Below the pieces are notes generated by a model, which was not told the origin of the DNA, ran no database searches, and saw nothing but the letters and a program-made list of their open reading frames with translations. Shown here in pieces: positions 350 through 21,715 of a stretch of 64,000 bases of DNA. This DNA is from Myxococcota bacterium (GTDB taxonomy: Bacteria > Myxococcota_A > SURF-8), in the NCBI GenBank assembly GCA_965140415.1, contig OZ223209.1:1056001-1120000 (forward strand), written 5' to 3'. The position numbers and the translations under genes were made by a program. Numbering within the stretch: the stretch's first letter is position 1; each line of letters opens with the position of its first letter.

Positions 350-381
350 ACGCGGGATGTCCAGTGGGTGTCCCGCGTTTT
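350..381. terminator. Hairpin between convergent genes, probable intrinsic terminator
   Basis: ACGCGGGA-TGTCC-agt-GGGTG-TCCCGCGT followed by TTT; lies between the ileS stop (320) and the stop of the 380..1672 gene. Confidence 0.65.
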
Positions 382-1672
382 ACGTTTTGGGATTCATCTG
401 CTCGTAGTGAGCAAGCGCGTTGGCGATGCGCTCGACCAGTCCAAGTACGCCGTCGTATCCCATAAACGGCATGGGCAGCAGATGGTGGGTAAAATAAGAG
501 TGATACCCCAACTCGATGTGGGCGAATGGAAATTTGATGTGTGCTGTATTGAATGAAGGAGAAATCAGTGCGTTTATCTGATTGAGATGATATTCTATCT
601 CTAACAAGTTAATCAAATCCGAAAAATCGGCATCGAATTTAACGGAGCTGTATTTTTCCTTTTGATCGTCTGCTGAAATATGGCGTTTGTCGGCGGTGGC
701 GATTGTGGCTGCGATTTCTGCTCCAAAGAACCGCAAGGCTTCCCCTAAAGCAACGATGAAATAGGGATCGCCCATTAACGCAAAGCGTTTTCCAAGCAAA
801 TAGCGTTCGACTGGAATGCGTAGTTTAGGCAGGATTTCCGCTTCCATCGTTTCGATAATGGACTCGGCGCGAGCTTGTTCGTTGCAGGCTTCTGCCACTA
901 CCCGGAGAAAATCAGCACAGCCTTCCACGCCGATGGGCAGAGGTGCTTCCACTACCTGTGAGCCTGTGCGCCGGGCCAGGATCTGTGCCGCTTTGCGACC
1001 ATAAGGTAGAGATATCAGAATTCCGGCCTGTGCCACTTGTGCCAGCTCTTGGCAGGTTTCACCGGAAAACCAGATTGTACCCGGCGTCAATCCGAGCATA
1101 GACAGCAGCAGACGGATCTGTTGCAGGTTGGCTTGATGATCGCTTTCGTTGCGGTCCATGAAATAACCGATGACCGCCACCGTTTTGGGAATGGGTTTTG
1201 CTTCGGGAAGTGGAAGACGTTTTGCCAGTTCGGAAAGCATGGAGCCATAGCCGTCGAGCCAGTCTAGTTGCAGTTCTCCCTGAACCAAAGGGAGAACCGG
1301 TTTGTTGTATCGATCCTGTGCATCTTCGAAAATAGGGTCGTAGTCGCGGTGTGTCGCTTCGACCATCGTAGACGCCGTGACGGCGATAGCGGAAAACGCT
1401 GGGTCTTGACCTACTTGATTCAGCGCCTTTTCTAACGAGGAGGTATCTCCCATCGAACAGACGGGAATTGTGAGTTGTGTATTGATATGGCGCGGATTGG
1501 GAATACGAGCCAGCGTACTGAACCAGTCGTGGCTGCCGCTGATGCGCGTGGTTTTATTCATGTAACAGTCCGGCGCGTCGCTGATCAGCGCCAGATCGGC
1601 AATGGCGTTGGCGGCGAAATAGACACCATCGGAAAAAACCGGACATAATGAAGGTAGGTACTTGCTGATCAT
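380..1672 (-). CDS. Nitrogenase component-1-like oxidoreductase subunit (divergent NifK/BchB/NflD-like)
   Basis: GVYFAANAIADLALISDAPDC, PLPIGVEGCADFLRVVA, LGKRFALMGDP and C-terminal PFMGYDGVLGLVERIANA resemble the component-1 fold; ATGA overlap with the upstream gene. Confidence 0.8.
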   Translation of the reverse strand: MISKYLPSLCPVFSDGVYFAANAIADLALISDAPDCYMNKTTRISGSHDWFSTLARIPNPRHINTQLTIPVCSMGDTSSLEKALNQVGQDPAFSAIAVTASTMVEATHRDYDPIFEDAQDRYNKPVLPLVQGELQLDWLDGYGSMLSELAKRLPLPEAKPIPKTVAVIGYFMDRNESDHQANLQQIRLLLSMLGLTPGTIWFSGETCQELAQVAQAGILISLPYGRKAAQILARRTGSQVVEAPLPIGVEGCADFLRVVAEACNEQARAESIIETMEAEILPKLRIPVERYLLGKRFALMGDPYFIVALGEALRFFGAEIAATIATADKRHISADDQKEKYSSVKFDADFSDLINLLEIEYHLNQINALISPSFNTAHIKFPFAHIELGYHSYFTHHLLPMPFMGYDGVLGLVERIANALAHYEQMNPKT

Positions 1673-3840
1673 GACTCGTGTGTTTTCCTTATTCGGTCAG
1701 CGATCCGTCTATAATAAGGCGTTTCACAGCGTTGCATGAGACGCTCGAAGCTGCGGTCCGCACCTTGGAAACCCATTTCGAAATCGCGCACGGAGAAAGT
1801 CGGTTTTCCTACGGTGAAAGCGCGTTCTTCGTGACTGTAATCGCTGTACACCGCGCCGATCTCCGGTTGGACGAGTAGATGCTGTAATTCTTCTTGGGTG
1901 CTGAAACATTCGACTTGAAGTTCGCTTAAATCCACCGTTTCTTCCTTGCTTGTTGCTAGCAATTCGCGAAGGGAAGGGCAGAAGTCTGGAATGGAAGCAT
2001 CTTCGAAAACCAGCGCCCGGCAGGAAAAACCGAACTCTCGCAATACACGAAGAAGTGAGAGGCCATCATTGGAGAGTGGCTCCCAGATGCGTCGTAGCTG
2101 GCTTGCTTCAACAACGAAGGCCAGTGTGATCGATGCACTTCGCTGCTGCCATTGTTGCAATTGACGTTGCAGATCCTGTTCGATCTTTGCATAAGCGGCT
2201 TGCCAGCGGTCGGATAGATCAAGTGCTTGTGCGATTGCCTCGCACCATAGGCGCGTCGCTTCAATTCCAAATGGTGCTGGAGGTTGGATATGTGGAATGT
2301 TTTCGAATGACTCGAACAGGTTTTTAAGATTTTCTTCGAACGTATTGGAAATCGGAAAGACCTGTAACCAGGCTTGATGGAAACCGGTTAGCTGAGCCGG
2401 TTCGAGGTTCGGAATCACTTGTGCAGAAACTTCGATGCCGCTGTTATTTAAGCTGTGTACCAGTTCCTGAGTGTCGGGTCCGGCAGGCAAGCCGATCAAG
2501 GCGACCGAAGGCAGTTCGTTACGCTTGGGCGGCATGGCCGGGTCGATCAGTTTTTCGAACAGCATCCGCAGGGAAGCTTCCGGCGAAATGAAATAATCTT
2601 CCGGGTAAAAGGGGAAGACCTCCAGTTTGGAATCCTGCTTGATCTCGTTTAAAAGTGCGTTTACATTTTGACCCAGTAATTTGAACAAACAGGTTTTACG
2701 GATGACATAGGTGCGCTCCGGGTTGGCGTTATTCGCGCTTTCCAGTAACAAACCACGCAAAACGTCTTCTCCGCCGGTCAGCAGGGCGTCATGTCCGCGA
2801 ATGTCGGTGGCCAGGGTAGAGGAGGTATGGTCAAGGTGATTTCCCTGCCCCTCGTGAGAACGCAGATTGTATAACGAATATTCCTGCTTTGGAATTGCCG
2901 GGGAAATACTCATGCAGGCGCGGTCGGCATGTTGAATGAGCGATACGTTCGGCGCATCCATCCAACGAAAAGCATGACGGCTTTCAATTTCACCTACTGC
3001 CATAAATTGCCGCCAGCGTGTTTCAGGCGGCAGAAAATAATAGCTATCCAGTTGTTTCACGGCTCCAAGTTGTAGAATACTGGCCAAGGCAGGTGAGATT
3101 TCGTCGGAATAGGTTTGTTGTCCTTCGAACTTGGGTAGTATTCGTGCAATTGCAAAGCCGACTGCTCGCTCCACCTGGTGCTCGATTGTTTCGCGCTCTT
3201 GTGCGCTACGTTCATCCGTATTCTGATAGAGCGACAGAAAACCGCGTTGGAGTAATAGGCGGCTTTCTCCATGCGTCTTGGGGTGCGTCTCGGTTTGTCG
3301 GGGATCGCTTATCCGTAGATCGAAACTTACTTTTATTTGTCCATCGGAAAAGATCAACTGGACGGAATTTCGCCCGGGAAGGACTTGCTTGATGCGGTAA
3401 CGATGCCAGCCGGATCGCTCCGGCTCGAACCAGTTCGTAATTCGCGAAATACATTCTTCGGCCTGGATTCCTTCTTCCGAATTTTCCAGTGGTATCAGTG
3501 CGCAAAACGATGGCCTGGAAAGGGAAGAGGAAAGTGTGCGTCCCAGGATGTGAAGCAACTCGTTTTCAAGTCCGGTCTGCTTGCTTTCCACTTTGCCGAA
3601 GGCAAAGCAGCCGGGCAGGTTGTCCAGTTTCTTTCCGATTCCTTCGAGCCAGGAGATGTGGACCGTTCCAAGGGAACTCTCGAACAAGAAACTCAATGAG
3701 CCATCCACTTCGGGAAAGGCGCTGACGTCCCAGGGCTGACCGCTGCGACGTGTGGCCAGCGCTGCCGCGATACGAGCCAGCGCGTGGCAACCCAGGTCCG
3801 GTCGCAGGCGGATATCGAGCGTTCCTTCGGGCGATGTCAT
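1669..3840 (-). CDS. Nitrogenase component-1-like subunit with ~280-aa unknown N-terminal extension
   Basis: HADRAC, TDIRGHDALLTGGEDVL, KTCLFKLLGQNV, PAPFGIEATRLWCEAIA and MGFQGA resemble component-1 motifs from about residue 300; ATGA overlaps on both sides. Confidence 0.7.
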   Translation of the reverse strand: MTSPEGTLDIRLRPDLGCHALARIAAALATRRSGQPWDVSAFPEVDGSLSFLFESSLGTVHISWLEGIGKKLDNLPGCFAFGKVESKQTGLENELLHILGRTLSSSLSRPSFCALIPLENSEEGIQAEECISRITNWFEPERSGWHRYRIKQVLPGRNSVQLIFSDGQIKVSFDLRISDPRQTETHPKTHGESRLLLQRGFLSLYQNTDERSAQERETIEHQVERAVGFAIARILPKFEGQQTYSDEISPALASILQLGAVKQLDSYYFLPPETRWRQFMAVGEIESRHAFRWMDAPNVSLIQHADRACMSISPAIPKQEYSLYNLRSHEGQGNHLDHTSSTLATDIRGHDALLTGGEDVLRGLLLESANNANPERTYVIRKTCLFKLLGQNVNALLNEIKQDSKLEVFPFYPEDYFISPEASLRMLFEKLIDPAMPPKRNELPSVALIGLPAGPDTQELVHSLNNSGIEVSAQVIPNLEPAQLTGFHQAWLQVFPISNTFEENLKNLFESFENIPHIQPPAPFGIEATRLWCEAIAQALDLSDRWQAAYAKIEQDLQRQLQQWQQRSASITLAFVVEASQLRRIWEPLSNDGLSLLRVLREFGFSCRALVFEDASIPDFCPSLRELLATSKEETVDLSELQVECFSTQEELQHLLVQPEIGAVYSDYSHEERAFTVGKPTFSVRDFEMGFQGADRSFERLMQRCETPYYRRIADRIRKTHES

Positions 3841-4679
3841 AAGGAACTACCCCGTTGTGTCTGGATGAAACTGAAGAAGGCTTCATCGTCCAGCGGTGTG
3901 GGCAGTACGAGATCCTTATCGGGCAGGCGTTCAAGTTGTTGCGACAGCGCCTCGAAGCGCTTGGATGCTTCGGATTGCGGCGCATATTCGGAGACCGTTT
4001 GCCCGTGGATTTCGGCTTCTCCTATCAAGGGATCGCGCGGCATGACGGCCAGAATCGGAGCGCCAAGCTGCTCTGCAAAACGTTCAGGCAAAGAAACGGG
4101 AACGCTGTTGTCTCGTCGATTGACGACGATGCCTGCCAGACGGATACCACTGCGTTGCAACCGTACAATGGCGCGTGCGATGTTGTTGGCGGCAAACAGC
4201 GACATCACTTCTTCGCTGATGACCAGCACGACCATATCGGCAAAACCTTTGCGCAAAGGCGCGGCAAAACCACCGCAAACCACGTCGCCGAGGATGTCGA
4301 ACACGATGGCCTTGTAGCCGTTACGCTGGTAGTCGTTTTCCTCCAGCATACTTAATACGCGAGCCACGCCCCAGCCTCCGCAACCCAAACCGGGTTCGGG
4401 GCCGCCCGCCTCGATGCAGTCGATATCCGCAGCACCTTTCCGGATGAACTGGTTCAGGTGCAATTCTCCATCTTGGATTTCGATCAATTTGGAGGCGACC
4501 GTCACCGGGCGCTCCCCGTGTGTCAACAGAATGGTCGAATCGCTTTTCGGATCACAGCCGACGTGCAGGACTTTTCCACCGCGCAAGGCGAACTGCATGG
4601 ACAGATTGGCGGAAATCGTCGATTTACCGATGCCGCCTTTTCCGTATATCGCCAGTTTTACCGTTTCTCGTTCGAACAT
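3837..4679 (-). CDS. Nitrogenase iron protein-like ATPase (NifH/BchL/CfbC family)
   Basis: YGKGGIGKST, GCDPKSDST, GGPEPGLGCGG and DILGDVVCGGFAAP; both [4Fe-4S] Cys ligands are present. Confidence 0.95.
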   Translation of the reverse strand: MFERETVKLAIYGKGGIGKSTISANLSMQFALRGGKVLHVGCDPKSDSTILLTHGERPVTVASKLIEIQDGELHLNQFIRKGAADIDCIEAGGPEPGLGCGGWGVARVLSMLEENDYQRNGYKAIVFDILGDVVCGGFAAPLRKGFADMVVLVISEEVMSLFAANNIARAIVRLQRSGIRLAGIVVNRRDNSVPVSLPERFAEQLGAPILAVMPRDPLIGEAEIHGQTVSEYAPQSEASKRFEALSQQLERLPDKDLVLPTPLDDEAFFSFIQTQRGSSL

Positions 4680-4718
4680 AAACGTGTCACTCTCATATGA
4701 TAGACGTATATAACAGCG

Positions 4719-4747
4719 ATACTAAATAGTTTGCGTGGTGAGCGCAA
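4719..4747 (-). promoter_or_regulatory. Putative sigma70-type promoter of the nitrogenase-like operon
   Basis: Minus strand TTGCGC-17 bp-TAGTAT about 40 bp upstream of the ATG. Confidence 0.4.
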
Positions 4748-4805
4748 GGTAAAAAGGGGGCTGTGTCCGTTCGTGTTTAGAGGTAGCCTTTATAAAGAGT
4801 AATCG

Positions 4806-6181: not shown

Positions 6182-8299
6182 ATGCGGCGGAAGCGACTGT
6201 TGAAGGGGACGTCTTGGAAATACAAGGCTATGATATTGTTTGTGTATATGCTGCTACTGATTCCTTCTTCGGCGTTTGGCTGGGGAGCGGGAATGCACGC
6301 GACAATGACCTCCCACGCCCACGAGCGCATGACGTCGCGCTGGGCGTCCGCCTTGGATCATGGATTGATGCTGCACGGTTCCTACGGGCCGGATGTCTGG
6401 TATATCCTGTCGGACGACTTTATGAGCATGTTATGCCCGATTGCCTGCGGCGGGGACGATGGCCGCATTTCCAATGAATGCTGGGGGCGCTATACCGACC
6501 CGGATCGCAGCTTTGCCTATTCGCGTCATCTGCTGGTGAATTGCGAAACCATACAGGAGCTCTCCTGGTCATTCGGTTATGCGGCACACACGGTTGAGGA
6601 TTGGCGCGGTCATCTCGAATATATCATTCCGGATTGGCGCAGCCCAGAAGGCGATCTCTACAGCCGTCACACCATGATCGACTCTACCGGAGCGGCCCTG
6701 GCATTTAATGTATGGGGATTTCATGGCTATCCCACGCGTTTTCCGGTGGATCGGGAAATTTTCGGTTACAAAGACGGCGGTTTTCTGAGCACTGAAAACT
6801 TCGAGCAGACCGGCGGACGGGATCCCGAAGCAGGGTTGATTGTCGGTGTGCGGGAATTGTCCAACGGTGATCGCATCGCACAGTGGAACGGTGGTTTGAA
6901 TCCTGAAATTCGAGGTGTCGGCGGGGAGGATATCTGTCGTGTCAGCAATGCTGCCAGCCTGGGTTCGGCCTCGGAAGGTATTTTGGCAGCGCAGTATGGC
7001 ATGACAGATTATGACGCCTACGGAAACGATTTCCCGATCGTCGTTGAAGATGGCGCCGTGGCGATCGACTGCGGCACGAACTATTGCCAGCGATTCGACA
7101 GCGAACTGGGCGGAGGCGGCGGTATGGCCTGCCAGGTGAATATGGGCGCGATCAGTGGGTTGGCGCAATGGGACAGCTATTTAAAACCGGCGGATGAAAG
7201 CTCCGAAGAGATCGTGGTGAACCGGGAGGAAGTCGAAGAGTGGATGGACAAAATCGCCGGGGAATTCAGCCACGGCGGTGTGCGTATGGACGACAATGCG
7301 CTATTCGGCATCGACCCGGATACGGGCAAGAGCACGTTGCATCTGGAAGGCGTTGACGGGCGCGATTATACCTACGGTCGCACCATGCCTGAAATCGTGG
7401 ATGAGGTATTGGACCTCAACATTCAAGACGTTACGGATCAGCTATTCGAAAATGGACACGTAATAGGAACGGTGTTGCAGTCGCGTTTGTCACCATTGGA
7501 GAAAGCGCGTTTTGTGGCCTTCGGTTTTCATTATCGACCTCGCATGAGCGCCTGGCCGGACAGTCTCCCATATGAAGATGCTTCCGTGCAGCTTTCGCCG
7601 CTAGCGCCCGGTCCCTTTGCCAGCGTGCAGTTGCCCGTCGATCTGAGACCGGAAGAAACGAATGCCGCCCCGGAGATGGTGTTTCCGTATTATCTGGCCA
7701 CCCTGCGCTTCGATCCCGAGAGCCTGTATGGGCAGGGGCGCATCGAAGGCGGGGTCAGCTATCGTGATGCGGAAGGGAACATCGATGGCGAAGAAACAGG
7801 CTTTACGCTTGACTGGCCAGCCGCAACCTTGACGCAGCCGGGGGAAATGGCCAGCTTGAAGGAAGAAGAAGGCGAACAGGTTCTGCGCATCGTTCTGGAT
7901 AATCGCGAGGGTGGCTGGTTCTATTACCCGGAAGGCGAGAAAGATCGTGCTCTGATGCTGCAATTGAATCTGGTCGTTACCGACGAAACCCAGCCACCGT
8001 TCGACTGGCTCTGGGACATCGAATTAGCCGGATATTGCGATGCACCCGACTTGACTGCTCCCGCCGCTCCGCCTTCGGATAACAAAGCTTGCCCGCTTGC
8101 CAAACCCGATTTTCCCGAGCCGGAATCGGATGGCGACATGGAAACGGATGCCAATCTGTCGGATGGCGATCTGGATAATACTGGCAACGACGGCAGTGAC
8201 GACGGCTGCCGGAGCGCCTCTGAGGCTCCGTCTGTCTGGTTGCTCCTGTTGATTGGATTGGCACTGTACAGAAGAAAAAGGTGGGTGTATAGAAAGTAA
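6182..8299 (+). CDS. Secreted zinc-dependent phospholipase C/P1-nuclease-like protein with MYXO-CTERM-like anchor
   Basis: Signal peptide ending AFG, then WGAGMH, GSYGPD and AHTVED..H metal motifs; tail DGCRSASEAPSVWLLLLIGLALYRRKR. Confidence 0.6.
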   Translation: MRRKRLLKGTSWKYKAMILFVYMLLLIPSSAFGWGAGMHATMTSHAHERMTSRWASALDHGLMLHGSYGPDVWYILSDDFMSMLCPIACGGDDGRISNECWGRYTDPDRSFAYSRHLLVNCETIQELSWSFGYAAHTVEDWRGHLEYIIPDWRSPEGDLYSRHTMIDSTGAALAFNVWGFHGYPTRFPVDREIFGYKDGGFLSTENFEQTGGRDPEAGLIVGVRELSNGDRIAQWNGGLNPEIRGVGGEDICRVSNAASLGSASEGILAAQYGMTDYDAYGNDFPIVVEDGAVAIDCGTNYCQRFDSELGGGGGMACQVNMGAISGLAQWDSYLKPADESSEEIVVNREEVEEWMDKIAGEFSHGGVRMDDNALFGIDPDTGKSTLHLEGVDGRDYTYGRTMPEIVDEVLDLNIQDVTDQLFENGHVIGTVLQSRLSPLEKARFVAFGFHYRPRMSAWPDSLPYEDASVQLSPLAPGPFASVQLPVDLRPEETNAAPEMVFPYYLATLRFDPESLYGQGRIEGGVSYRDAEGNIDGEETGFTLDWPAATLTQPGEMASLKEEEGEQVLRIVLDNREGGWFYYPEGEKDRALMLQLNLVVTDETQPPFDWLWDIELAGYCDAPDLTAPAAPPSDNKACPLAKPDFPEPESDGDMETDANLSDGDLDNTGNDGSDDGCRSASEAPSVWLLLLIGLALYRRKRWVYRK

Positions 8300-9698: not shown

Positions 9699-11897
9699 AT
9701 GAATATGGACCCGATCTATTTAGACTACAACGCTACCACACCCATCGACCCACGGGTTGGTGAAGCGATGATCCCCTTTATTCGTAAACATTACGGCAAT
9801 CCGAGTAGTAGTCACGTTTTGGGCGTGGCTACACGGCAGGCCGTTGACCGTGCCCGCAAGCAGGTGGCGGAACTGCTTGGTTGCGGAATCGAAGAGGTCA
9901 TCTTTACCTCCGGGGGCTCGGAGTCTAACAACTACGCGATTAAGGGAATCGCCTGGGCGCGCAGGGACCGTGGCAATCACATCGTGACTTCGGCCATCGA
10001 ACACCCGGCTGTGATCGAGGTCTGCCGCTATCTGGAGGAACATGGATTCAGCGTTACCTATTTGCCGGTAGATGCTGACGGTCTGGTCTCGGTTGCGGAT
10101 TTAGAAGCCTCTCTTACACCCAGGACTATCCTCGTCTCCATCATGCACGCCAACAACGAGGTGGGAAGCATTCAGCCCATCGCAGAGATGGCGGCTATCA
10201 CTCGGGCGCGTGGCATCGCCTTCCATACGGATTGCGCCCAGGCCGTCGGTAAAGTCCCCGTGCGGGTTGACGATTTAGGCGTGGACCTGCTGTCCGTGGC
10301 CGGACACAAACTCTATGCACCAAAAGGAATTGGGGCTCTGTACGTGCGTAGCGGCACTCGACTCGAAAAGCTGGTACATGGTGCCGATCACGAGATGAAC
10401 TGGAGGGCCGGAACCGAGAACGTGTTGGAAATCGTGGGATTGGGAGAAGCCTGTCGCCTGGTCCGTGAAGATCTGGACGAGGAGATGCCCCGTCTGGCAA
10501 CGCTGCGTAACAAACTGGAACACAGCTTGCGCGAGCGCTATCCCGACTTGCGTTTCAATGGTCATTCTGAAAAGCGTCTGCCCAACACGGCCAGCATCAG
10601 TTTTCCGAGTCTTGAGGCCAATACGATTCTCAGTGAGTTGACCGGCGTTGCCGCCTCGGCGGGGGCGGCCTGCCACAGCGACCACGTTGACGTTTCCGCC
10701 GTGCTGACCGCCATGAACGTACCCCTGGAATACGCCATGGGCACCTTGCGGTTTTCCGTCGGACGATTCACCACCGAGCAGGAGATCGACCGGGCGATTA
10801 TCGAGATCGGCGAGGTCGTGGACCGCTTACAGCCTGCGGGCCTCTGCGAAGTGGCAGCTTCTGACGAGGAGATCAAGCTGACCCGCTTCACCCATGGATT
10901 GGGCTGTGCCTGCAAACTGCGTCCCCAGGTGCTGGAATCCGTAGTGAGCCGCCTGGCTCTGCCGGACGATCCCAAGGTGTTGGTTGGAGCCGATACTTCC
11001 GATGATGCTGCCGTTTACAAACTGGACGACCTAACGGCCCTGATCGCCACGGTGGATTTCTTCACTCCCATTGTGGATGACCCATACGAGTTTGGAGCCA
11101 TTGCCGCCGCCAATTCACTGAGCGATGTCTACGCCATGGGAGGACGCCCATTGTTCGCCTTGAACGTGGTGGGTTTTCCCTCAAATCGCCTGCCGGTTTC
11201 GGTTCTGGAAAAGATTCTGCTTGGCGCTCAGAACAAGGCGAAAGAGGCGGGTATAAACATTGTGGGAGGCCATACGGTAGATGACACGGAACCCAAGTTC
11301 GGTCTGGCCGTAACCGGTGTTGTGGCTCTCGATAAGATGGTGGCTAATCGTGGCGCTTGTCCCGGCGATGTTCTGGTGCTGACCAAGCCGTTGGGAACCG
11401 GTGTGCTGTCTACGGCTCTTAAACAGGGATTGTTGGACGAGACACAGCGGCAACGTCTGGTGGAAACCATGGCCTGCTTGAACTGGGGCGCTGCCGAGGC
11501 GATGCAGGAAGTCGGCGTGCACGCCGCAACGGATATTACCGGCTTTGGATTGTGCGGACATCTTCTGGAAATGCTGAAGGCTTCGGGTGTTGGTGGAGAA
11601 CTCCGCTTCGACGCGGTGCCATTCTTACCCGGTGTGTTCGAGTTGGCGGCTTCGGGTGTGATCCCCGGCGGGTCACGAGACAACTTCGAGTTCACTCGAC
11701 CTCACCTGACTTATCCTGAGTCCTTGTCGGAAATTCGCAGGATCGTGCTCAACGACGCGCAGACTTCGGGCGGGTTGCTGATTGCCGTGGCTGAGGATCG
11801 AGTCGCCGATCTGCTACGGGTGCTGGATGCGAAGCAGGTTGAAACGCAGGCTGTAGTTGGAAGCATCACCGAAGGTTCCGGCATACGCGTGATCTAA
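9699..11897 (+). CDS. selD: NifS-like cysteine desulfurase/selenocysteine lyase fused to selenide, water dikinase SelD
   Basis: N-half YLDYNATTP, FTSGGSESNN, HANNEVG, GHKLYAPKG, SAGAACHS; C-half GCACKL, DDAAVY, DFFTP, ANSLSDVYAMGG, DITGFGL, DAQTSGGLL. Confidence 0.93.
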   Translation: MNMDPIYLDYNATTPIDPRVGEAMIPFIRKHYGNPSSSHVLGVATRQAVDRARKQVAELLGCGIEEVIFTSGGSESNNYAIKGIAWARRDRGNHIVTSAIEHPAVIEVCRYLEEHGFSVTYLPVDADGLVSVADLEASLTPRTILVSIMHANNEVGSIQPIAEMAAITRARGIAFHTDCAQAVGKVPVRVDDLGVDLLSVAGHKLYAPKGIGALYVRSGTRLEKLVHGADHEMNWRAGTENVLEIVGLGEACRLVREDLDEEMPRLATLRNKLEHSLRERYPDLRFNGHSEKRLPNTASISFPSLEANTILSELTGVAASAGAACHSDHVDVSAVLTAMNVPLEYAMGTLRFSVGRFTTEQEIDRAIIEIGEVVDRLQPAGLCEVAASDEEIKLTRFTHGLGCACKLRPQVLESVVSRLALPDDPKVLVGADTSDDAAVYKLDDLTALIATVDFFTPIVDDPYEFGAIAAANSLSDVYAMGGRPLFALNVVGFPSNRLPVSVLEKILLGAQNKAKEAGINIVGGHTVDDTEPKFGLAVTGVVALDKMVANRGACPGDVLVLTKPLGTGVLSTALKQGLLDETQRQRLVETMACLNWGAAEAMQEVGVHAATDITGFGLCGHLLEMLKASGVGGELRFDAVPFLPGVFELAASGVIPGGSRDNFEFTRPHLTYPESLSEIRRIVLNDAQTSGGLLIAVAEDRVADLLRVLDAKQVETQAVVGSITEGSGIRVI

Positions 11898-15692: not shown

Positions 15693-16391
15693 ATGAAATA
15701 TCTTATCCTTTTCATGCTCGGGCTTCAGTTGATACTGATTTCTGCCGCAAGCGGTTGCGATTCGTCCGATACTTCCGTTGGCGCGGATGGCGACAGCGAT
15801 GTGCTGGATGGCGAGAATCCCCCGGATGGAGATCTCCCTCCGGATGGAGATCTTCCTCCGGATGGTGACACGCCGGTTGACGGTGACACGCCCGTTGATG
15901 GTGACACTCCCATCGATGGTGATACCCCCGTTGATGGCGACACCCCCGTTGATGGTGACACGCCCGTTGATGGTGACACACCTGTTGACGGTGACACACC
16001 TGTTGACGGTGACACGCCCGTCGATGGTGACACACCCGTTGATGGTGACACGCCCATTGACGGTGACACACCTGTTGACGGTGACACGCCCGTCGATGGT
16101 GACACACCCGTTGATGGTGACACGCCTGTTGATGGCGATACGCCTGTTGATGGTGACACGCCCGTTGATGGTGACACACCCGTTGATGGTGACACACCCG
16201 TTGATGGCGATGTTGAAGTGACACCATCTGCGCCGGTTTTGCACGTTGGTTTTAGTGCGGCGTCAGGCTCCATGATTTCGGATTCCCACCGCCTTACCTT
16301 CAGCTTTGCACCCTTTTCCCTTAAAACGACCGGCAAGGCGACGAATGGCGAAGTGATTCTGCATTCGATTCTCGTTCCGGCTGCGCGGTAA
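15693..16391 (+). CDS. Lipoprotein with long (DGDTPV)n acidic spacer and short C-terminal beta domain
   Basis: Signal peptide with ASGC lipobox; hexapeptide repeats; first gene of a co-oriented four-gene cluster. Confidence 0.8.
   Translation: MKYLILFMLGLQLILISAASGCDSSDTSVGADGDSDVLDGENPPDGDLPPDGDLPPDGDTPVDGDTPVDGDTPIDGDTPVDGDTPVDGDTPVDGDTPVDGDTPVDGDTPVDGDTPVDGDTPIDGDTPVDGDTPVDGDTPVDGDTPVDGDTPVDGDTPVDGDTPVDGDTPVDGDVEVTPSAPVLHVGFSAASGSMISDSHRLTFSFAPFSLKTTGKATNGEVILHSILVPAAR
15807..16211 (+). repeat. 18-bp coding tandem repeat
   Basis: 19 copies of DGDTP(V/I) (15861-16202) preceded by DGENPP and two DGDLPP; variation mostly at third codon positions. Confidence 0.95.
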
Positions 16392-16438
16392 AGGAGGTGC
16401 GTATCATGAAGGTCTGTCTACGAATATCGGAGGAGAGG

Positions 16439-17629
16439 ATGCGACAGGCTATTCTTTGGCTTTCACTTGTGCTGTTGGGGTGCTTGAGTTCGTTCGCACT
16501 TGCTGAGGTGCCCGATACCATGACCTACCAAGGCTATATGACCGATAGCGCAGGAGAACCACTAAATGGTGTGCAGTCCGTAACTTTCAAAATCTACGGT
16601 GCGGAAACCGGGACAGAGGCGATCTGGGAACAGACTGATACCGTTACCTTTGAGCAGGGACGTTTCGAGGCACTATTGGGTGGCAATGACAACCCATTGG
16701 ATGCCAACGTCTTTTCTTCGCCGGAACTCTGGATTGCTGTTTCCATTGGTGGTGGCGACGAACTGCTGCCGCGTGTCATGCTCCCGAGTGTTCCCTACGC
16801 GACTCGCGCGGACGTTGCAGAAAATGCAGTAGGAGATATCACGCCACATACTGTCAGCGTGGCCGGAGCGACCGTCATCGATGAAAGCGGCCAATGGGTA
16901 GGCGATCCGACCGATATCCAGGGACCGAAAGGAGATCAGGGAGATCCCGGCGAACAGGGCGAAGCCGGTGAATCGGTTGCGATTTGGTCAGCGGAATCAG
17001 AAAATTGTCTTCAAGGCGGGGTCGGTTTCTCAATTGGCGATGCGCCTCCCCAGTTCCTTTGTAATGGCGATGCCGGTCCTATGGGAGAGAAGGGGGACAG
17101 AGGACAGAAAGGCGAACCGGGAATCCAAGGCGAGACGGGAGAGCCAGGCCAGGATGGTGCGGATGGACAGGACTGCTGGGATTTGAACAACAATGGAACG
17201 TGCGATACGTCCACGGAAGATACCGATGGCAGCGGTGGATGCTCATTGGCGGACTGTTATCTGCCAGAGCCGGATCTTTTGTGCAAGAACTTCGGATGGC
17301 CCTCTTTTCACCTAAGCCTGGGGTGGTATAACAACGTTTGCATTTATAGCTGTGATATCTGCACCGAGGGCGATACAACCTGTGTGAACTGGATTGAAGC
17401 TGCCAGTTACTGTAGTAGCTACGGTCTCAGCTTGTGTACTTACGAAGAACTCTATCTGGCAAAACGCGATGGTATGAGTCTATCTCAAAATTTCTGGATG
17501 GCAGATCGCACGGCGGACAATGGTGCGCTATATGTCAACGATACAAGCAATGAGAACAATTTCGACGCCCAAGACAATGTTCGTGATGACAGAACGGGGT
17601 TTTACTGCTGTTATCGCTATCGTGACTAA
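16439..17629 (+). CDS. Secreted collagen-like fibre protein, paralog 1
   Basis: Signal peptide; YQGYMTD..GEPL domain; Gly-X-Y runs; CWDLNNNGTCD loop; Cys-rich tip ending GFYCC; alternative start at 16406. Confidence 0.8.
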   Translation: MRQAILWLSLVLLGCLSSFALAEVPDTMTYQGYMTDSAGEPLNGVQSVTFKIYGAETGTEAIWEQTDTVTFEQGRFEALLGGNDNPLDANVFSSPELWIAVSIGGGDELLPRVMLPSVPYATRADVAENAVGDITPHTVSVAGATVIDESGQWVGDPTDIQGPKGDQGDPGEQGEAGESVAIWSAESENCLQGGVGFSIGDAPPQFLCNGDAGPMGEKGDRGQKGEPGIQGETGEPGQDGADGQDCWDLNNNGTCDTSTEDTDGSGGCSLADCYLPEPDLLCKNFGWPSFHLSLGWYNNVCIYSCDICTEGDTTCVNWIEAASYCSSYGLSLCTYEELYLAKRDGMSLSQNFWMADRTADNGALYVNDTSNENNFDAQDNVRDDRTGFYCCYRYRD

Positions 17630-17682: not shown

Positions 17683-18867
17683 ATGCGAGTACGAATACTT
17701 TTTATTTTAATCGCTACAACGTTGGGATTGGCTGGCGGTGCGTGGGCCGAAGTCCCGGTGAGGTTGCAGTATCAGGGGTTTCTAACGGACACGAGTGGAA
17801 CACCGTTGTCCGGAGAACGGAACGTCTCTTTCTCGATTTATGGCTCGGAAAGCGGGGACGACGTGAATTGGACGCAGATAAGCCAGGTGATGGTTTGTCA
17901 GGGGTCGTTCAGTGTCCTATTGGGGAGTGAGACCAATCCGTTGGACGCCAATGTCTTTTCAGGTTCGGATCTCTGGCTAGGCATTACGGTTGGCGATGGA
18001 CCGGAATTGCTCCCGCGCATGAAGGTGAGCGCCATGCCGTTCGCGCAACAGGCTGGAGTGTCTGACAATGCTATCGGTGACATCACACCTGCTACTGTCA
18101 GTGTTTCAGGAAATCCAGTGATCGATGCTGATGGAAAGTGGGTTGGTGATCCATCCGGGTTGGCTGGACCGAAAGGTGAGAAGGGAGATACGGGCGTACA
18201 GGGGGAAACTGGCGTCGCCGGAGATTCTGTCCAGGCCTCTCCCGCCGATTCCTCGTCTTGTCCCGATGGCGGCTACGAATTCTCCGTCGGTGATAGCCTG
18301 TCGTATTTTGCTTGTAATGGCGCTGCGGGTCCGCAAGGGGAAGCAGGTGACCAGGGAGAGAAAGGTGACCAGGGAATTAAAGGGGAAACCGGAGCGGCTG
18401 GTGATGATGGTGATAGGGGACTGACTTGTTGGGATAAAAACAACAACGGAACCTGCGATTTAACCACTGAAGATACGGATGATAGCGGATATTGCAATGC
18501 AGAAGATTGCAGTTTGAATAACTCGCTTCCACAATGCCGTGATGACTATAGATATTATAAAGTGGATCTTCCTGGTCGCAGAATCTGTTATTACGTGGAA
18601 AACAATGATTGGGGCTATACGTGGAATGAATCTGCTTCTTATTGTTCTGGCGGAAATGTTGCATACTCGTTATGCACCTATGAGCAGGTCAAACACTTAA
18701 AACAGAGCAATCAAATATTTTATATGCCCGAAGGATGGTTAGCCGATCGTACGGCAGACAGTAATGCCTTGTATCTGCAAGGATGGGGAGATAGTACCGG
18801 GCAAGCGAATCTCGAGTCGGAACTGGACGATTACTACTGTTGTGTTGAATACCGGGCAAGAGATTAG
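17683..18867 (+). CDS. Secreted collagen-like fibre protein, paralog 2
   Basis: Same architecture: YQGFLTD..GTPL, GDITP, WVGDP, Gly-X-Y runs, CWDKNNNGTCD, YYCC. Confidence 0.8.
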   Translation: MRVRILFILIATTLGLAGGAWAEVPVRLQYQGFLTDTSGTPLSGERNVSFSIYGSESGDDVNWTQISQVMVCQGSFSVLLGSETNPLDANVFSGSDLWLGITVGDGPELLPRMKVSAMPFAQQAGVSDNAIGDITPATVSVSGNPVIDADGKWVGDPSGLAGPKGEKGDTGVQGETGVAGDSVQASPADSSSCPDGGYEFSVGDSLSYFACNGAAGPQGEAGDQGEKGDQGIKGETGAAGDDGDRGLTCWDKNNNGTCDLTTEDTDDSGYCNAEDCSLNNSLPQCRDDYRYYKVDLPGRRICYYVENNDWGYTWNESASYCSGGNVAYSLCTYEQVKHLKQSNQIFYMPEGWLADRTADSNALYLQGWGDSTGQANLESELDDYYCCVEYRARD

Positions 18868-18913
18868 GCTTAAATGATCTTGGGTTACATGAAACATGCG
18901 ATTGGGTGAAATC

Positions 18914-20107
18914 ATGCAAAAACATGTGGTAATACTTATCGTTGTTTGGGTTCTGGGATTGAGTGGTGCCGTCCATGCCGAAATGGTGGAGCGCATGCAG
19001 TTTCAAGGCTTTCTAACGGACGCGGAAGGGCAACCGTTGGAGGGAGATCAGGAATTGGTCTTTGCACTGTATGGATCTGTAGAAGGGGGGGAGGCCATTT
19101 GGACTCAGACCATAACGGTGTCAATGGAGAATGGTATTTTCAGCGTGTTATTGGGTAGCCAGGCTAATCCGTTGGATGAAACCGTTTTCAGCGGTCGAGA
19201 CCGCTGGTTAGGCGTAGCGGTTGGTGACGAAGTGGAAATGACGCCCCGTGTGCAGGTTCGCTCCGTTCCCTATGCCGTTCGAGTTGAACAAGCGACAAAT
19301 TCCGTAGGTGATATTACACCCAATACGGTGAGTGTCGGCGGTTCTGAGGTTATCGATGAAAACGGTCATTGGGTCGGTGATCCGACCGGTCTTGCCGGAC
19401 CGAAAGGAGATCAAGGCGATCGCGGTTTGCAGGGTACGCCCGGCGCGGCTGGGGTTTCCGTTGCCAGCTGGTCGGCGGATGTCTTGGATTGTCCGCAGGG
19501 CGGGACGGGGTTTTCCATCGGCGATGGTCCGGATCAATTCATCTGTAATGGAAGCGTGGGCCCGAAAGGTGACATCGGTCAGCAAGGAGAAACGGGCGAT
19601 CAGGGGGAGCAGGGAGATCCCGGCCAGCCTGGTAGTGCGGGGCATCCTTGCTGGGACATCGATGGCAGCGGAACCTGCAATGGCAACGAAGATGCCGACG
19701 GCGTAAATGGTTGCACGGTGCACGATTGTCGTGAGAACAGCGCCTGCCCGACTATGGCTGGAGCCACGGGAACCATTACACCTTACACTTTAGATCAGCC
19801 AAAACAGCAAATCTGCATCTATGCATTTCCCGGTTGTCCGGTCGGTCAGAGTTGCAATACCTACGATCAAGCCATGAGCGTGTGCAGCGCTCTTCAAATG
19901 GACCTGTGTAGCTACGAGCAACTTCAAGTTGCAGTATTGGATGGCATGACAGCTGTCGAGCAAATGTGGATGTCCGACATTACGGATGGTAGCAAGGCGC
20001 TTTATGTCAATAGAGACAATGACACTACTGATTTCGACGGTGAGGCGACGATGACGACGGAAAAGCGTGGCGCTTACTGCTGTCGCGTGATGTGGATCGG
20101 AGATTGA
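18914..20107 (+). CDS. Secreted collagen-like fibre protein, paralog 3
   Basis: Same architecture: FQGFLTD..GQPL, GDITP, WVGDP, Gly-X-Y runs, CWDIDGSGTCN, GAYCC. Confidence 0.8.
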   Translation: MQKHVVILIVVWVLGLSGAVHAEMVERMQFQGFLTDAEGQPLEGDQELVFALYGSVEGGEAIWTQTITVSMENGIFSVLLGSQANPLDETVFSGRDRWLGVAVGDEVEMTPRVQVRSVPYAVRVEQATNSVGDITPNTVSVGGSEVIDENGHWVGDPTGLAGPKGDQGDRGLQGTPGAAGVSVASWSADVLDCPQGGTGFSIGDGPDQFICNGSVGPKGDIGQQGETGDQGEQGDPGQPGSAGHPCWDIDGSGTCNGNEDADGVNGCTVHDCRENSACPTMAGATGTITPYTLDQPKQQICIYAFPGCPVGQSCNTYDQAMSVCSALQMDLCSYEQLQVAVLDGMTAVEQMWMSDITDGSKALYVNRDNDTTDFDGEATMTTEKRGAYCCRVMWIGD

Positions 20108-20218: not shown

Positions 20219-21715
20219 TCAGTCTTCGACCTCTCTGATTGTGCGCACCAGGCGAAAGCCAATCGATTTCCAGCGAGCGTTGGGTAACTCGATGTAACGA
20301 TCGGCAAGGCGACTGGAGCGGGGAGCATTCAAGCAACTGCCGCCACGACGAGAACGCAAGACCCCACTATCCAAGCCTGAGTAATCCGTTTGAGGTTCCG
20401 AGGGATAGTCTCCATACAGATCCCAATTCCATTCCCATGCATTTCCGAGAACATCATACAGTCCCCAGGCATTGGGGAGTTTCTGTCCCACGGGGTGCAT
20501 GGTCTCCCCTGAATTGCCGCAATGCCAGGCAATGAGATCACAATTCGGATCTGAGATTCTGCACTCGCTCGAAACTTCCGATATGCTGCCATCGCTGCCT
20601 TCCACCTCGTAAAAGGCCGTCTCACTTCCGGCTCGGGCGGCATATTCCCACTCCGCTTCCGTTGGTAACCGAAAACCAGGGCAGTGCTGGGGGATGCTGA
20701 AAATCGGTTTCAGACTGCATTCGGTCAACTCCCCTTCGCCTGTACAGTCAAAGCAAGTCGCCAAGTCATGAGCTTCGGAGAACTTATTGGCAAACTTCAG
20801 GGCTTCATACCACGAAACCTGTTCAACCGGACAGGTGTCTCCGCAACTCTTGAAATAGGATGGATTGTATTCCATCAATTCGGCAAACTGCCCCTGGGTC
20901 GTTTCGTAGGTCATGATCTCGTAATTATACGTCAACGTAGCTTCCCACTGCGTTTCATCGTCGTCACGTCCACCTTCTGCAAGGGGGCTTCCCATTGTGA
21001 ATGTACCGGCCTGAATAAATGTAAATCCCTCGGTAACCACTGAGATGCAGCGACCTTCCACGCAACGGCTTTGTGCATCGCACATCCCGCACTCAACCCC
21101 GCATATTGGATCTGGCCCACAGTCCAGCTCGCTGCAATCCGCATCATCCGGGCAGGTGGGTGATTGTTCTACACAGACACCTTGATTACAGTCGTAGCCA
21201 CTCTCACAAGATCCACAGATTATTCCACAGACCGGATCGGCTCCGCATTCCAACTCGCTGCAATCCGCATCTTGCGGACACTCGGGTGTTTGCTCCACAC
21301 AACTTCCCTCTAAGCAGTCATAGCCCGTTTCACAGGTTCCGCAAATGGTGCCGCAGACCGGATCTGGTCCGCATTCCGTGTTCTCGCAATCGGTTTCTTG
21401 CGGACACTCGGGTTGCTGTTTTACACAGTTTCCGTCGATGCAATCGTATCCGTCCGAACATTGGCCGCAGATGATTCCACACACAGGGTCGTTTCCACAG
21501 CTTCGCCCCGCGCAATCGGCATCCATCGGACAACTTGGATTGTTTATTTCCAGCCATCCGTCATCATCCTGATCCTGATCTGCTTCCAGATCGCCATCGA
21601 GTGTGGAGCCATCGGAATCCCCGTCGGATGTGTTGCCGCTGTTGTCCTCTACACAGGCTGTAACAAGCACAGTCAAAAGCAACAGCAACAAACCTAAAAA
21701 GCTCGAGCGCAACAT
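20219..21715 (-). CDS. Lipoprotein with Cys-rich repeats and C-terminal FGE-sulfatase (SUMF1/EgtB/PvdO) domain
   Basis: VTAC lipobox; GTFTMGSP, PVEQVSW, FRLPTEAEWEYAARAG, PNAWGLYDVLGNAWEW, IGFRLVR. Confidence 0.9.
   Translation of the reverse strand: MLRSSFLGLLLLLLTVLVTACVEDNSGNTSDGDSDGSTLDGDLEADQDQDDDGWLEINNPSCPMDADCAGRSCGNDPVCGIICGQCSDGYDCIDGNCVKQQPECPQETDCENTECGPDPVCGTICGTCETGYDCLEGSCVEQTPECPQDADCSELECGADPVCGIICGSCESGYDCNQGVCVEQSPTCPDDADCSELDCGPDPICGVECGMCDAQSRCVEGRCISVVTEGFTFIQAGTFTMGSPLAEGGRDDDETQWEATLTYNYEIMTYETTQGQFAELMEYNPSYFKSCGDTCPVEQVSWYEALKFANKFSEAHDLATCFDCTGEGELTECSLKPIFSIPQHCPGFRLPTEAEWEYAARAGSETAFYEVEGSDGSISEVSSECRISDPNCDLIAWHCGNSGETMHPVGQKLPNAWGLYDVLGNAWEWNWDLYGDYPSEPQTDYSGLDSGVLRSRRGGSCLNAPRSSRLADRYIELPNARWKSIGFRLVRTIREVED
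21045..21532 (-). repeat. Four ~42-aa Cys-rich coding repeats
   Basis: CPxxxDCxxxxCGxDPxCGxxCGxCxxxxxCxxGxC repeated four times. Confidence 0.85.

Follow-up and report, generated by a model that had tools for sequence, protein, structure and literature searches.

The 64,000-nucleotide window analyzed here (positions 1,056,001 to 1,120,000 of contig OZ223209.1, assembly GCA_965140415.1, from a Myxococcota bacterium) carries near its start, on the minus strand, a cluster of three genes encoding a NifH-like Fe protein and two subunits that resemble component 1 of nitrogenase, one D-like and one K-like. Unprefixed positions follow the numbering of this 64-kb window, and we refer to its H-D-K cluster as copy A and to a second cluster of the same genome as copy B. 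An earlier note, written from the sequence, had described a NifH-type Fe protein and two component-1-like genes; these identities were borne out by Pfam, with one match to Fer4_NifH and two to Oxidored_nitro. The note had also described ATGA overlaps, and the H/D and D/K junctions both prove to be ATGA, the stop codon of one gene overlapping the start of the next. Judged by its protein sequences, the copy A operon belongs to the Group VI nitrogenase-like (NflHDK) family, which was named in 2020 and has no characterized member. The note had suggested that this may be an uncharacterized reductase clade, and this stood insofar as all three proteins fall under every curated NCBIfam family cut-off and the D-like and K-like proteins lie outside the Nif and Bch clades, but the clade already bore the name Group VI.

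The NifH-like protein, at about 40% identity to NifH, carries a P-loop (G13-S20), switch I (D43-S48), switch II (D128-F138), and the cluster cysteines C100 and C135, the equivalents of NifH Cys97 and Cys132, all of which are invariant in 37 aligned relatives. In this complete set of nucleotide and cluster motifs, as in its H+D+K gene set, copy A resembles Group VI systems. The closest solved relatives of the protein were NifH (217 bits), MarH (9fmg_D, 180 bits), and BchL (159 bits), and its NCBIfam scores were 269.9 bits for NifH (cut-off, 394), 265.1 for CfbC (cut-off, 402), 213 for BchL (cut-off, 345), and 178 for BchX (cut-off, 331). For the D-like and K-like proteins, the best NifD/E/K/N or BchN/B/Z model reached 39 to 52 bits against cut-offs over 320. 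Copy A differs from the Mo, V, and Fe nitrogenases in nifH, nifD, and nifK scores far under the cut-offs, and from dark-operative protochlorophyllide oxidoreductase (DPOR; BchL/ChlL with BchNB/ChlNB) and chlorophyllide oxidoreductase (COR) in scores that are all far under the cut-offs for BchL, BchN (52 versus 420 bits), BchB (46 versus 490 bits), BchX, BchY, and BchZ. An AlphaFold2 model of the D-like subunit had a mean predicted local distance difference test score (pLDDT) of 88.8 and a predicted template modeling score (pTM) of 0.77, and the best Foldseek matches of its core were NifE, MarD, and NifD, at expectation values (E) of 2e-16 to 1e-12 and 11 to 16% identity.

We compared metal-site ligands by aligning both component-1 families, D-like and K-like, to reference sequences (three each of NifD and NifK, plus NifE, NifN, BchN, BchB, BchY, and BchZ), using Azotobacter residue numbers matched by motif to the Sinorhizobium reference. 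The equivalents of NifD Cys88 and Cys154 were cysteine in all 25 D-like rows (C309 and C384 in copy A, both invariant in 98 relatives), and the equivalent of NifK Cys95 was cysteine in all 24 K-like rows (C36 in copy A, the single conserved cluster cysteine of that subunit, invariant in 12 of 12 and 24 of 24 aligned relatives). The equivalents of NifD Cys62, NifK Cys70, and NifK Cys153 were never cysteine in family rows. At the FeMo-cofactor ligand positions, a comparison made between the D-like proteins (K-like proteins not being aligned to NifD) and the three NifD references, the five commonest residues were P, E, I, D, and A in the Cys275 column (I in copy A), while the His442 column held mostly R, K, Q, D, or A, its five commonest (R in copy A); neither column ever held Cys or His in the family. 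Copy A has thus kept three of the six P-cluster cysteine positions (C309 and C384 on D, C36 on K) and lost both FeMo-cofactor ligand positions. Section 7 of a 2026 review (PMC13474568) sets the defining limit of Group VI at four or fewer of the six P-cluster cysteines, and the lack of Cys275 and His442 equivalents, like that of NifB, is a further trait that copy A shares with the group.

The source genome is a single, closed contig of 5.98 Mb. Across it PF00148 had only four matches, two in copy A and two at C1:915,799-918,217, and PF00142 had two strong matches, one per cluster. Because the four PF00148 matches all lie in copies A and B, the genome is without NifEN, BchNB/YZ, and CfbD, and the best match to the NifB model TIGR01290 anywhere in it scored 29.1 bits against a cut-off of 343.65. 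The absence of nifB/E/N and bch genes that the earlier note had reported for the window, along with cfb genes, thus holds for the entire genome, as does that of CfbD. Copy B lies about 140 kb from copy A at C1:914,734-919,071 (L013:8735-13072), in the order D-K-H, and its D, K, and H proteins (737, 438, and 273 residues) are 23%, 28%, and 40% identical to those of copy A.

Since each D/K pair offers three cysteines and the genome lacks NifB, the simplest reading is that the interface cluster is of the [4Fe-4S] type and has one ligand other than cysteine, and the chemistry is likely, on these sequence grounds, to be that of a simple [4Fe-4S] reductase, not nitrogen fixation. Such an enzyme would resemble DPOR, which, as set out in passages of the review (PMC13474568), pairs an ATP-driven Fe protein with a heterotetramer that has no complex cofactor and holds a single inter-subunit [4Fe-4S] cluster through three cysteines and one non-cysteine ligand. 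In copy A, D contributes two of the cysteines and K the third, whereas in DPOR all three are on N, and the source genome, unlike those with DPOR, has no bch genes.

A word-indexed search with the K-like protein returned 10 relatives besides itself. An exhaustive search with the D-like protein returned 580 cluster representatives at E ≤ 0.001 (413 at ≤ 1e-10), and a scan of one genome per species with the K-like protein gave 113 confirmed relatives, for which 76 loci were kept. These loci come mostly from Elusimicrobia and Myxococcota/'Deltaproteobacteria' assemblies, including GWA2_66_18 and GWA2_69_24, the latter cited by Meheust et al. (2020). For the component-1 tree (61 proteins, quick search, LG+G4), we combined 45 rows, sampled from 91 D-like and K-like rows of relatives, with the four source-genome proteins and 12 Nif and Bch references. 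The D-like proteins of both copies grouped with proteins of Elusimicrobia (GWA2_66_18 among them) and Myxococcota in a clade of 25 rows, apart from NifD and NifE, with a support of 100 in the Shimodaira-Hasegawa-like approximate likelihood ratio test (SH-aLRT); the K-like protein of copy A fell in a 22-row clade (SH-aLRT 97), which copy B joins at 91. BchN/Y and BchB/Z lie outside the D-like and K-like clades, and the D and K proteins also lie outside NifD/E/K/N, so that the tree comparison proposed in the earlier note sets both subunits apart from these characterized clades.

This clustering of the copy A D and K proteins with Elusimicrobia proteins agrees with Group VI, the name that Meheust et al. 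(2020), in the parts drawn on here, give to nitrogenase paralogs of Elusimicrobia, with homologs in 14 Myxococcales and two Gracilibacteria genomes. The available passages of the 2026 review (PMC13474568) set Group VI apart owing to its high divergence and describe nothing as known of its reaction or cofactors; the Conclusions add that gene context is of little help and tractable organisms are lacking. A comparison of 60 related genomes found the system in all five others of the same family, in three of four of the same order, and in 7 of the 51 others in the phylum, and the D and K proteins share only 28 to 36% identity even within the taxonomic family.

The D-like subunit of copy A departs from many Elusimicrobia counterparts at its N terminus, where it has a 240-residue, two-lobed domain and where those proteins are shorter or fused to NifH. 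Relatives' BLAST and HMMER matches to the subunit begin at about query residue 273, and full-length relatives that carry the domain form a minority (19 of 149 listed non-self representatives match from query residue 42 or earlier). Modeled alone (pLDDT 91.6, pTM 0.88), the domain forms two alpha/beta lobes, at about residues 7-114 and 124-237, each predicted as a helix, a 4- or 5-stranded sheet, and a helix. Foldseek gave no convincing match to this model (best DynU16, E 6.9e-4, TM 0.25), and a search of the ESM Atlas gave no usable match. A VIA-align comparison with 48,161 chains gave a best Z score of 7.7 (BPI); Z was at least 5 for 45 chains and reached 8 for none, values up to 7.7 being within the tool's stated noise range and typical of models with no true match. 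The domain is thus predicted with confidence as a model, without a fold assignment. A decayed NifH domain was also considered and rejected, since hhalign against the H-like family returned a probability of 0.1 and the model has a different fold. A complex prediction for two NifH-like chains with the domain scored 0.00.

The position of this domain is, judging from the reading frames, where many relatives carry a fused NifH-like domain. In 20 of 23 long open reading frames (ORFs) with a NifH-like match, the same frame holds a D-like core, with the NifH-like part first. Of 10 long proteins submitted to Pfam, 9 proved to have both domains; the set includes five independent database proteins and two seemingly identical entries, L060 and P0157. 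Such NifH-D fusions are common among Elusimicrobia relatives. Neither the N-terminal domain nor the fusion is mentioned in the available text of the Group VI review (PMC13474568), where 'fused' or 'fusion' occurs in this sense 0 times, in the main text of the 2020 preprint, whose supplementary figures S4-S6 may show domain architectures and neighborhoods, or in the accessible part of the 2026 mBio paper. The fusions suggest that Group VI enzymes can function with their Fe protein permanently tethered, which would bear on the Fe-protein cycle.

Radical S-adenosylmethionine (SAM) genes dominate the surroundings of the relatives, as a survey of homologous neighborhoods, also proposed in the earlier note, brought out. 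Among 116 immediate-neighbor ORFs (from 124 that qualified, the 8 longest being left out for size), 38 matched Radical_SAM, the next most frequent family being TPR with 5, and ORF clustering placed radical SAM genes in 45 of 78 loci. The commonest type scored best on the HxsC/HxsC4 models, far under the cut-off (167 versus 500 bits), and matched heme d1 and heme b models more weakly; others were B12-binding or HemN-like. In the passages of Meheust et al. (2020) used here, Group VI genes have many adjacent radical SAM genes, from none to 13, and tetrapyrrole reduction is proposed. Around the clusters of close relatives, the neighbors vary by locus (a PlsB-like acyltransferase, an FGGY kinase, an SRP54-family gene), and no shared partner gene was found there except PAS kinases in three loci. 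Because these clusters sit among unrelated housekeeping genes, the three-gene unit appears to be a self-contained mobile module.

These neighborhoods bear on the substrate. The hypothesis of Meheust et al. (2020) would make the operon a tetrapyrrole reductase that contributes to a novel cofactor in the manner of DPOR, COR, and CfbCD, the three characterized [4Fe-4S]-type members, all of which reduce tetrapyrroles according to the review text at hand (PMC13474568). Some relatives do have HemN-like and B12-binding radical SAM neighbors, and the source genome can make the precursor, with ALAD matched once and uroporphyrinogen-III synthase twice; heme synthesis, however, is nearly universal, so these genes do not discriminate. 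Tetrapyrrole-specific families are absent from the 25 most frequent of 57 families listed for the 116 immediate neighbors, there are no tetrapyrrole genes beside copy A or copy B, and the commonest radical SAM neighbors score best on HxsC models of peptide-maturase type, though far under the cut-off. We view a tetrapyrrole substrate as possible but rather doubtful.

The operon could instead encode a reductase for a non-tetrapyrrole substrate, a lipid or a peptide or other product of an HxsC-like radical SAM enzyme, with the N-terminal domain acting as a hydrophobic-ligand module that would deliver or bind the substrate. Consistent with this, the dominant neighbors of relatives are HxsC-like/SPASM and B12 radical SAM enzymes. 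A B12 radical SAM homolog in the source genome adjoins an LPG_synthase_TM gene, and its relative in locus L017 scores best on HpnJ. In the nearest relative, L021, the gene for a PlsB-like glycerol-3-phosphate acyltransferase (L021:4236-6926, plus strand) ends 4 nt before the NifH-like gene on the same strand, and the N-terminal lobes weakly resemble BPI/TULIP-type and polyketide-cyclase-type ligand-binding folds. Those fold matches, however, do not rise above the noise level stated for the aligner, each lipid-gene adjacency was seen once and is not kept across loci, and no precursor peptide gene turned up, in work that included no search aimed at one. We put this reading forward tentatively, and a tetrapyrrole and a non-tetrapyrrole radical SAM product carry about equal weight. 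If a non-tetrapyrrole substrate were confirmed, it would add a fourth kind of chemistry to those of the nitrogenase superfamily, which so far are the reduction of N2, the reduction of tetrapyrroles, and C-S cleavage.

Downstream of copy B lie a PAS histidine kinase, a response regulator, and a receiver-PAS-GGDEF protein, and homologous PAS histidine kinases stand beside clusters in the source genome and in a same-family genome, on both sides in locus L109 (Table 1). Kinases flanking copy B and both sides of one relative's cluster, and the fast divergence of D and K within the taxonomic family, could point to a mainly regulatory or sensory role or to a decaying relic, rather than to a metabolic enzyme. 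Either is improbable, given that in the NifH-like protein every residue for nucleotide binding and for the cluster is invariant, that the frames are intact and the overlaps translationally coupled, and that every one of the five family genomes has kept the system.

From the protein sequences and gene content, we consider it quite probable that the operon encodes a complete two-component, ATP-driven nitrogenase-like reductase of Group VI type, with the cluster and substrate class proposed below. Several points weigh against this reading. For a family that has no studied member, the transfer of electrons, the type of cluster, and the substrate have to be deduced, and the three listed sequencing runs that contain the stretch, all from one study, include no RNA dataset. 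The trees, moreover, contain no CfbCD, MarHDK, IsrHDK, or NfaHDK references, so the CfbCD, Mar, Isr, and Nfa clades are excluded only via model scores and ligand patterns.

The makeup of the trees therefore gives some room to a divergent Group IV enzyme, that is, CfbCD, methylthio-alkane reductase (MAR), or isethionate reductase. Copy A would share simple [4Fe-4S] chemistry with CfbCD, and its NifH-like protein scores 265 bits on CfbC against 270 on NifH. Against solved structures, the profile of the K-like family matched best to MAR chains 9d9u_A and 9fmg_A (90.8 bits), then to nitrogenase beta chains, the 9d9u_A match (E 7.8e-25) covering only profile positions 66-338, and MarD is among the best fold matches of the D-like core. 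The CfbC score is nonetheless far under its cut-off of 402. F430 is not known outside methanogens and their relatives. CfbCD serves the synthesis of this cofactor, and CfbD is a homodimer with no K subunit, as the consulted passages of PMC13474568 describe, whereas copy A has distinct D and K proteins. MAR, in the parts of PMC13474568 and of the 2026 mBio paper at hand, retains P-cluster ligands, holds a P-cluster and an L-type cluster, and needs MarB/NifB; in copy A three of the six cysteines remain and NifB is missing. The Mar and Isr systems (Groups IV-C and IV-F) use the NifB-type radical SAM proteins MarB and IsrB, and a NifB-type match is absent genome-wide here. The review text (PMC13474568) also keeps Group VI separate for its high divergence. 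We judge a Group IV enzyme to be very improbable.

The tree of NifH-like proteins (careful search, 42 rows) is a further difficulty for the Group VI reductase. Copy A is tied in it (97/90) to metagenome proteins and otherwise sits in a basal polytomy, unlike Group VI proteins in not being resolved within the Elusimicrobia clade, and the copy B protein, together with one Myxococcales protein, stands beside true NifH (99/98). A single family clade for the NifH-like proteins was not rejected by the approximately unbiased test (p 0.203). The placement of copy B is what speaks for a cryptic nitrogenase, but with the FeMo-cofactor ligand positions and half of the P-cluster cysteines lost, and a genome without NifB, NifEN, or other component-1 genes, a nitrogenase is extremely improbable.

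Finally, there are no radical SAM genes within the flanks of copy A or copy B; such genes are frequent, not obligatory, in Group VI. The earlier note's term orphan is only partly right, as the genome also has copy B and encodes radical SAM homologs elsewhere. Many radical SAM genes are present, and some share 57 to 60% identity with the radical SAM neighbors of the system in locus L016 of Myxococcota, more than the H, D, and K proteins share with their L016 counterparts. One of them, at C1:4677040-4677978, has as neighbors another radical SAM gene and genes for a DUF6929 protein and a DegT-type aminotransferase. Its homologs at E ≤ 1e-90 occur in 14 of 15 related genomes with the system and in 5 of 45 without it, counts that come from kin rather than independent genomes and from an E-value line picked after the table had been seen. 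The HxsC-like radical SAM pair at C1:4676148-4677978 (L099:7413-9978) is therefore a candidate unlinked partner, as a lead and not a test. B12 radical SAM matches of at least 54% identity were found in G001, G006, G009, G028, and G048, and four of these five genomes have the system, too few to judge. Separately, a radical SAM match at C1:2937402-2938298 lies in a 1254-residue open frame with one in-frame TGA, directly after a carbamoyltransferase homolog; a selenoprotein is conceivable in view of SelD, as is a gene that is fused or broken.

At its 3' end, copy A is convergent with ileS. The hairpin that the earlier note had placed at the end of the operon, next to ileS, is present between the two genes, although its T-run is found only on the plus (ileS) strand. 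Upstream of the NifH-like gene, a consensus scan of the 126 nt found no sigma70-like site, at odds with the sigma70-like promoter that had been described. The window has 36 sigma54-like matches at two or fewer mismatches, and none lies within 4680-4805, in agreement with the reported absence of a -24/-12 motif. Coordinates of these features are collected in Table 1.

Table 1. Features of the copy A operon and related elements in other loci
Feature	Position	Strand	Remarks
NifH-like Fe protein	3837..4679	-	280 aa; Pfam Fer4_NifH E 1.9e-80
D-like (alpha-type, NifD/NifE-like) component-1 subunit	1669..3840	-	723 aa; Pfam Oxidored_nitro E 8.5e-19, only aa 301-582
K-like (beta-type) component-1 subunit	380..1672	-	430 aa; Pfam Oxidored_nitro E 2.4e-41, aa 16-420
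Extra N-terminal domain of D-like subunit, aa 1-240	3121..3840	-	No Pfam match
Nitrogenase-type core of D-like subunit, aa 273-723	1669..3024	-	Carries C309 and C384
Hairpin, G+C-rich, 13 bp, within the 59 nt that separate the K-like gene from ileS	350..378		Terminator scan and direct reading
Upstream intergenic region of the NifH-like gene, 126 nt	4680..4805	-	No match in promoter scans
PAS histidine kinases near clusters	L109:7578-9926, L109:14545-17538, L110:39-2276, L013:13294-15768
NifH-D fusion examples	L022:7655-9955, L025:18750-21146, L060:7305-9950		17 further ORFs in related loci

Other genes of the window were recorded alongside the operon. At 6182-8299 (plus strand) lies a gene for a 705-residue protein with no Pfam match, whose end, an acidic stretch with cysteine followed by a hydrophobic segment and then a tail of basic residues, resembles a C-terminal sorting signal. 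Five kilobases from the operon, at 9699-11897 (plus strand), a NifS-like cysteine desulfurase is fused to the selenophosphate synthetase SelD; the fusion scores 480 bits on NifS, just under the cut-off of 531, and 390 bits on SelD (cut-off, 125). Eight copies of a 16-nt motif, TGACACRCCYGTTGAT, spaced by multiples of 18 nt, occupy 15884-16205 (plus strand), just 5' of three tandem paralogous collagen triple-helix-repeat genes (16397-17629, 17683-18867, and 18896-20107). Three proteins with an FGE-sulfatase domain are encoded near the two nitrogenase-like clusters, at 20219-21715 in the window, L014:4973-6532, and L013:5762-8557 (all minus strand), and such proteins probably form a large paralogous family in the source genome.

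Taken together, we propose a model in which a NifH-like homodimer, with a bridging [4Fe-4S] cluster on C100 and C135 as the workings of the superfamily would suggest, binds MgATP and docks on a heterotetramer of D-like and K-like subunits. Low-potential electrons would then pass to a cluster at the D/K interface, which may be of the [4Fe-4S] type, with three cysteine ligands and a fourth of another kind like that of protochlorophyllide reductase, and an organic substrate, rather than N2, would be reduced there. Our best guess is that this substrate is a small-molecule or cofactor intermediate from HxsC-like/SPASM-type and B12-dependent radical SAM enzymes, which flank the system in relatives and would be supplied in the source organism by genes elsewhere in its genome.

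No branch of the nitrogenase superfamily is less well understood than Group VI. This locus contributes two divergent copies in one closed genome, a D-like subunit with an additional domain that has no fold match, and a candidate unlinked radical SAM partner, and its relatives contribute the natural NifH-D fusions. The features of this genome, together with the conservation of the system in all five other family genomes searched, make the Group VI question easier to test, and if organisms of the family can be cultured, a first substrate identification for Group VI may become possible.

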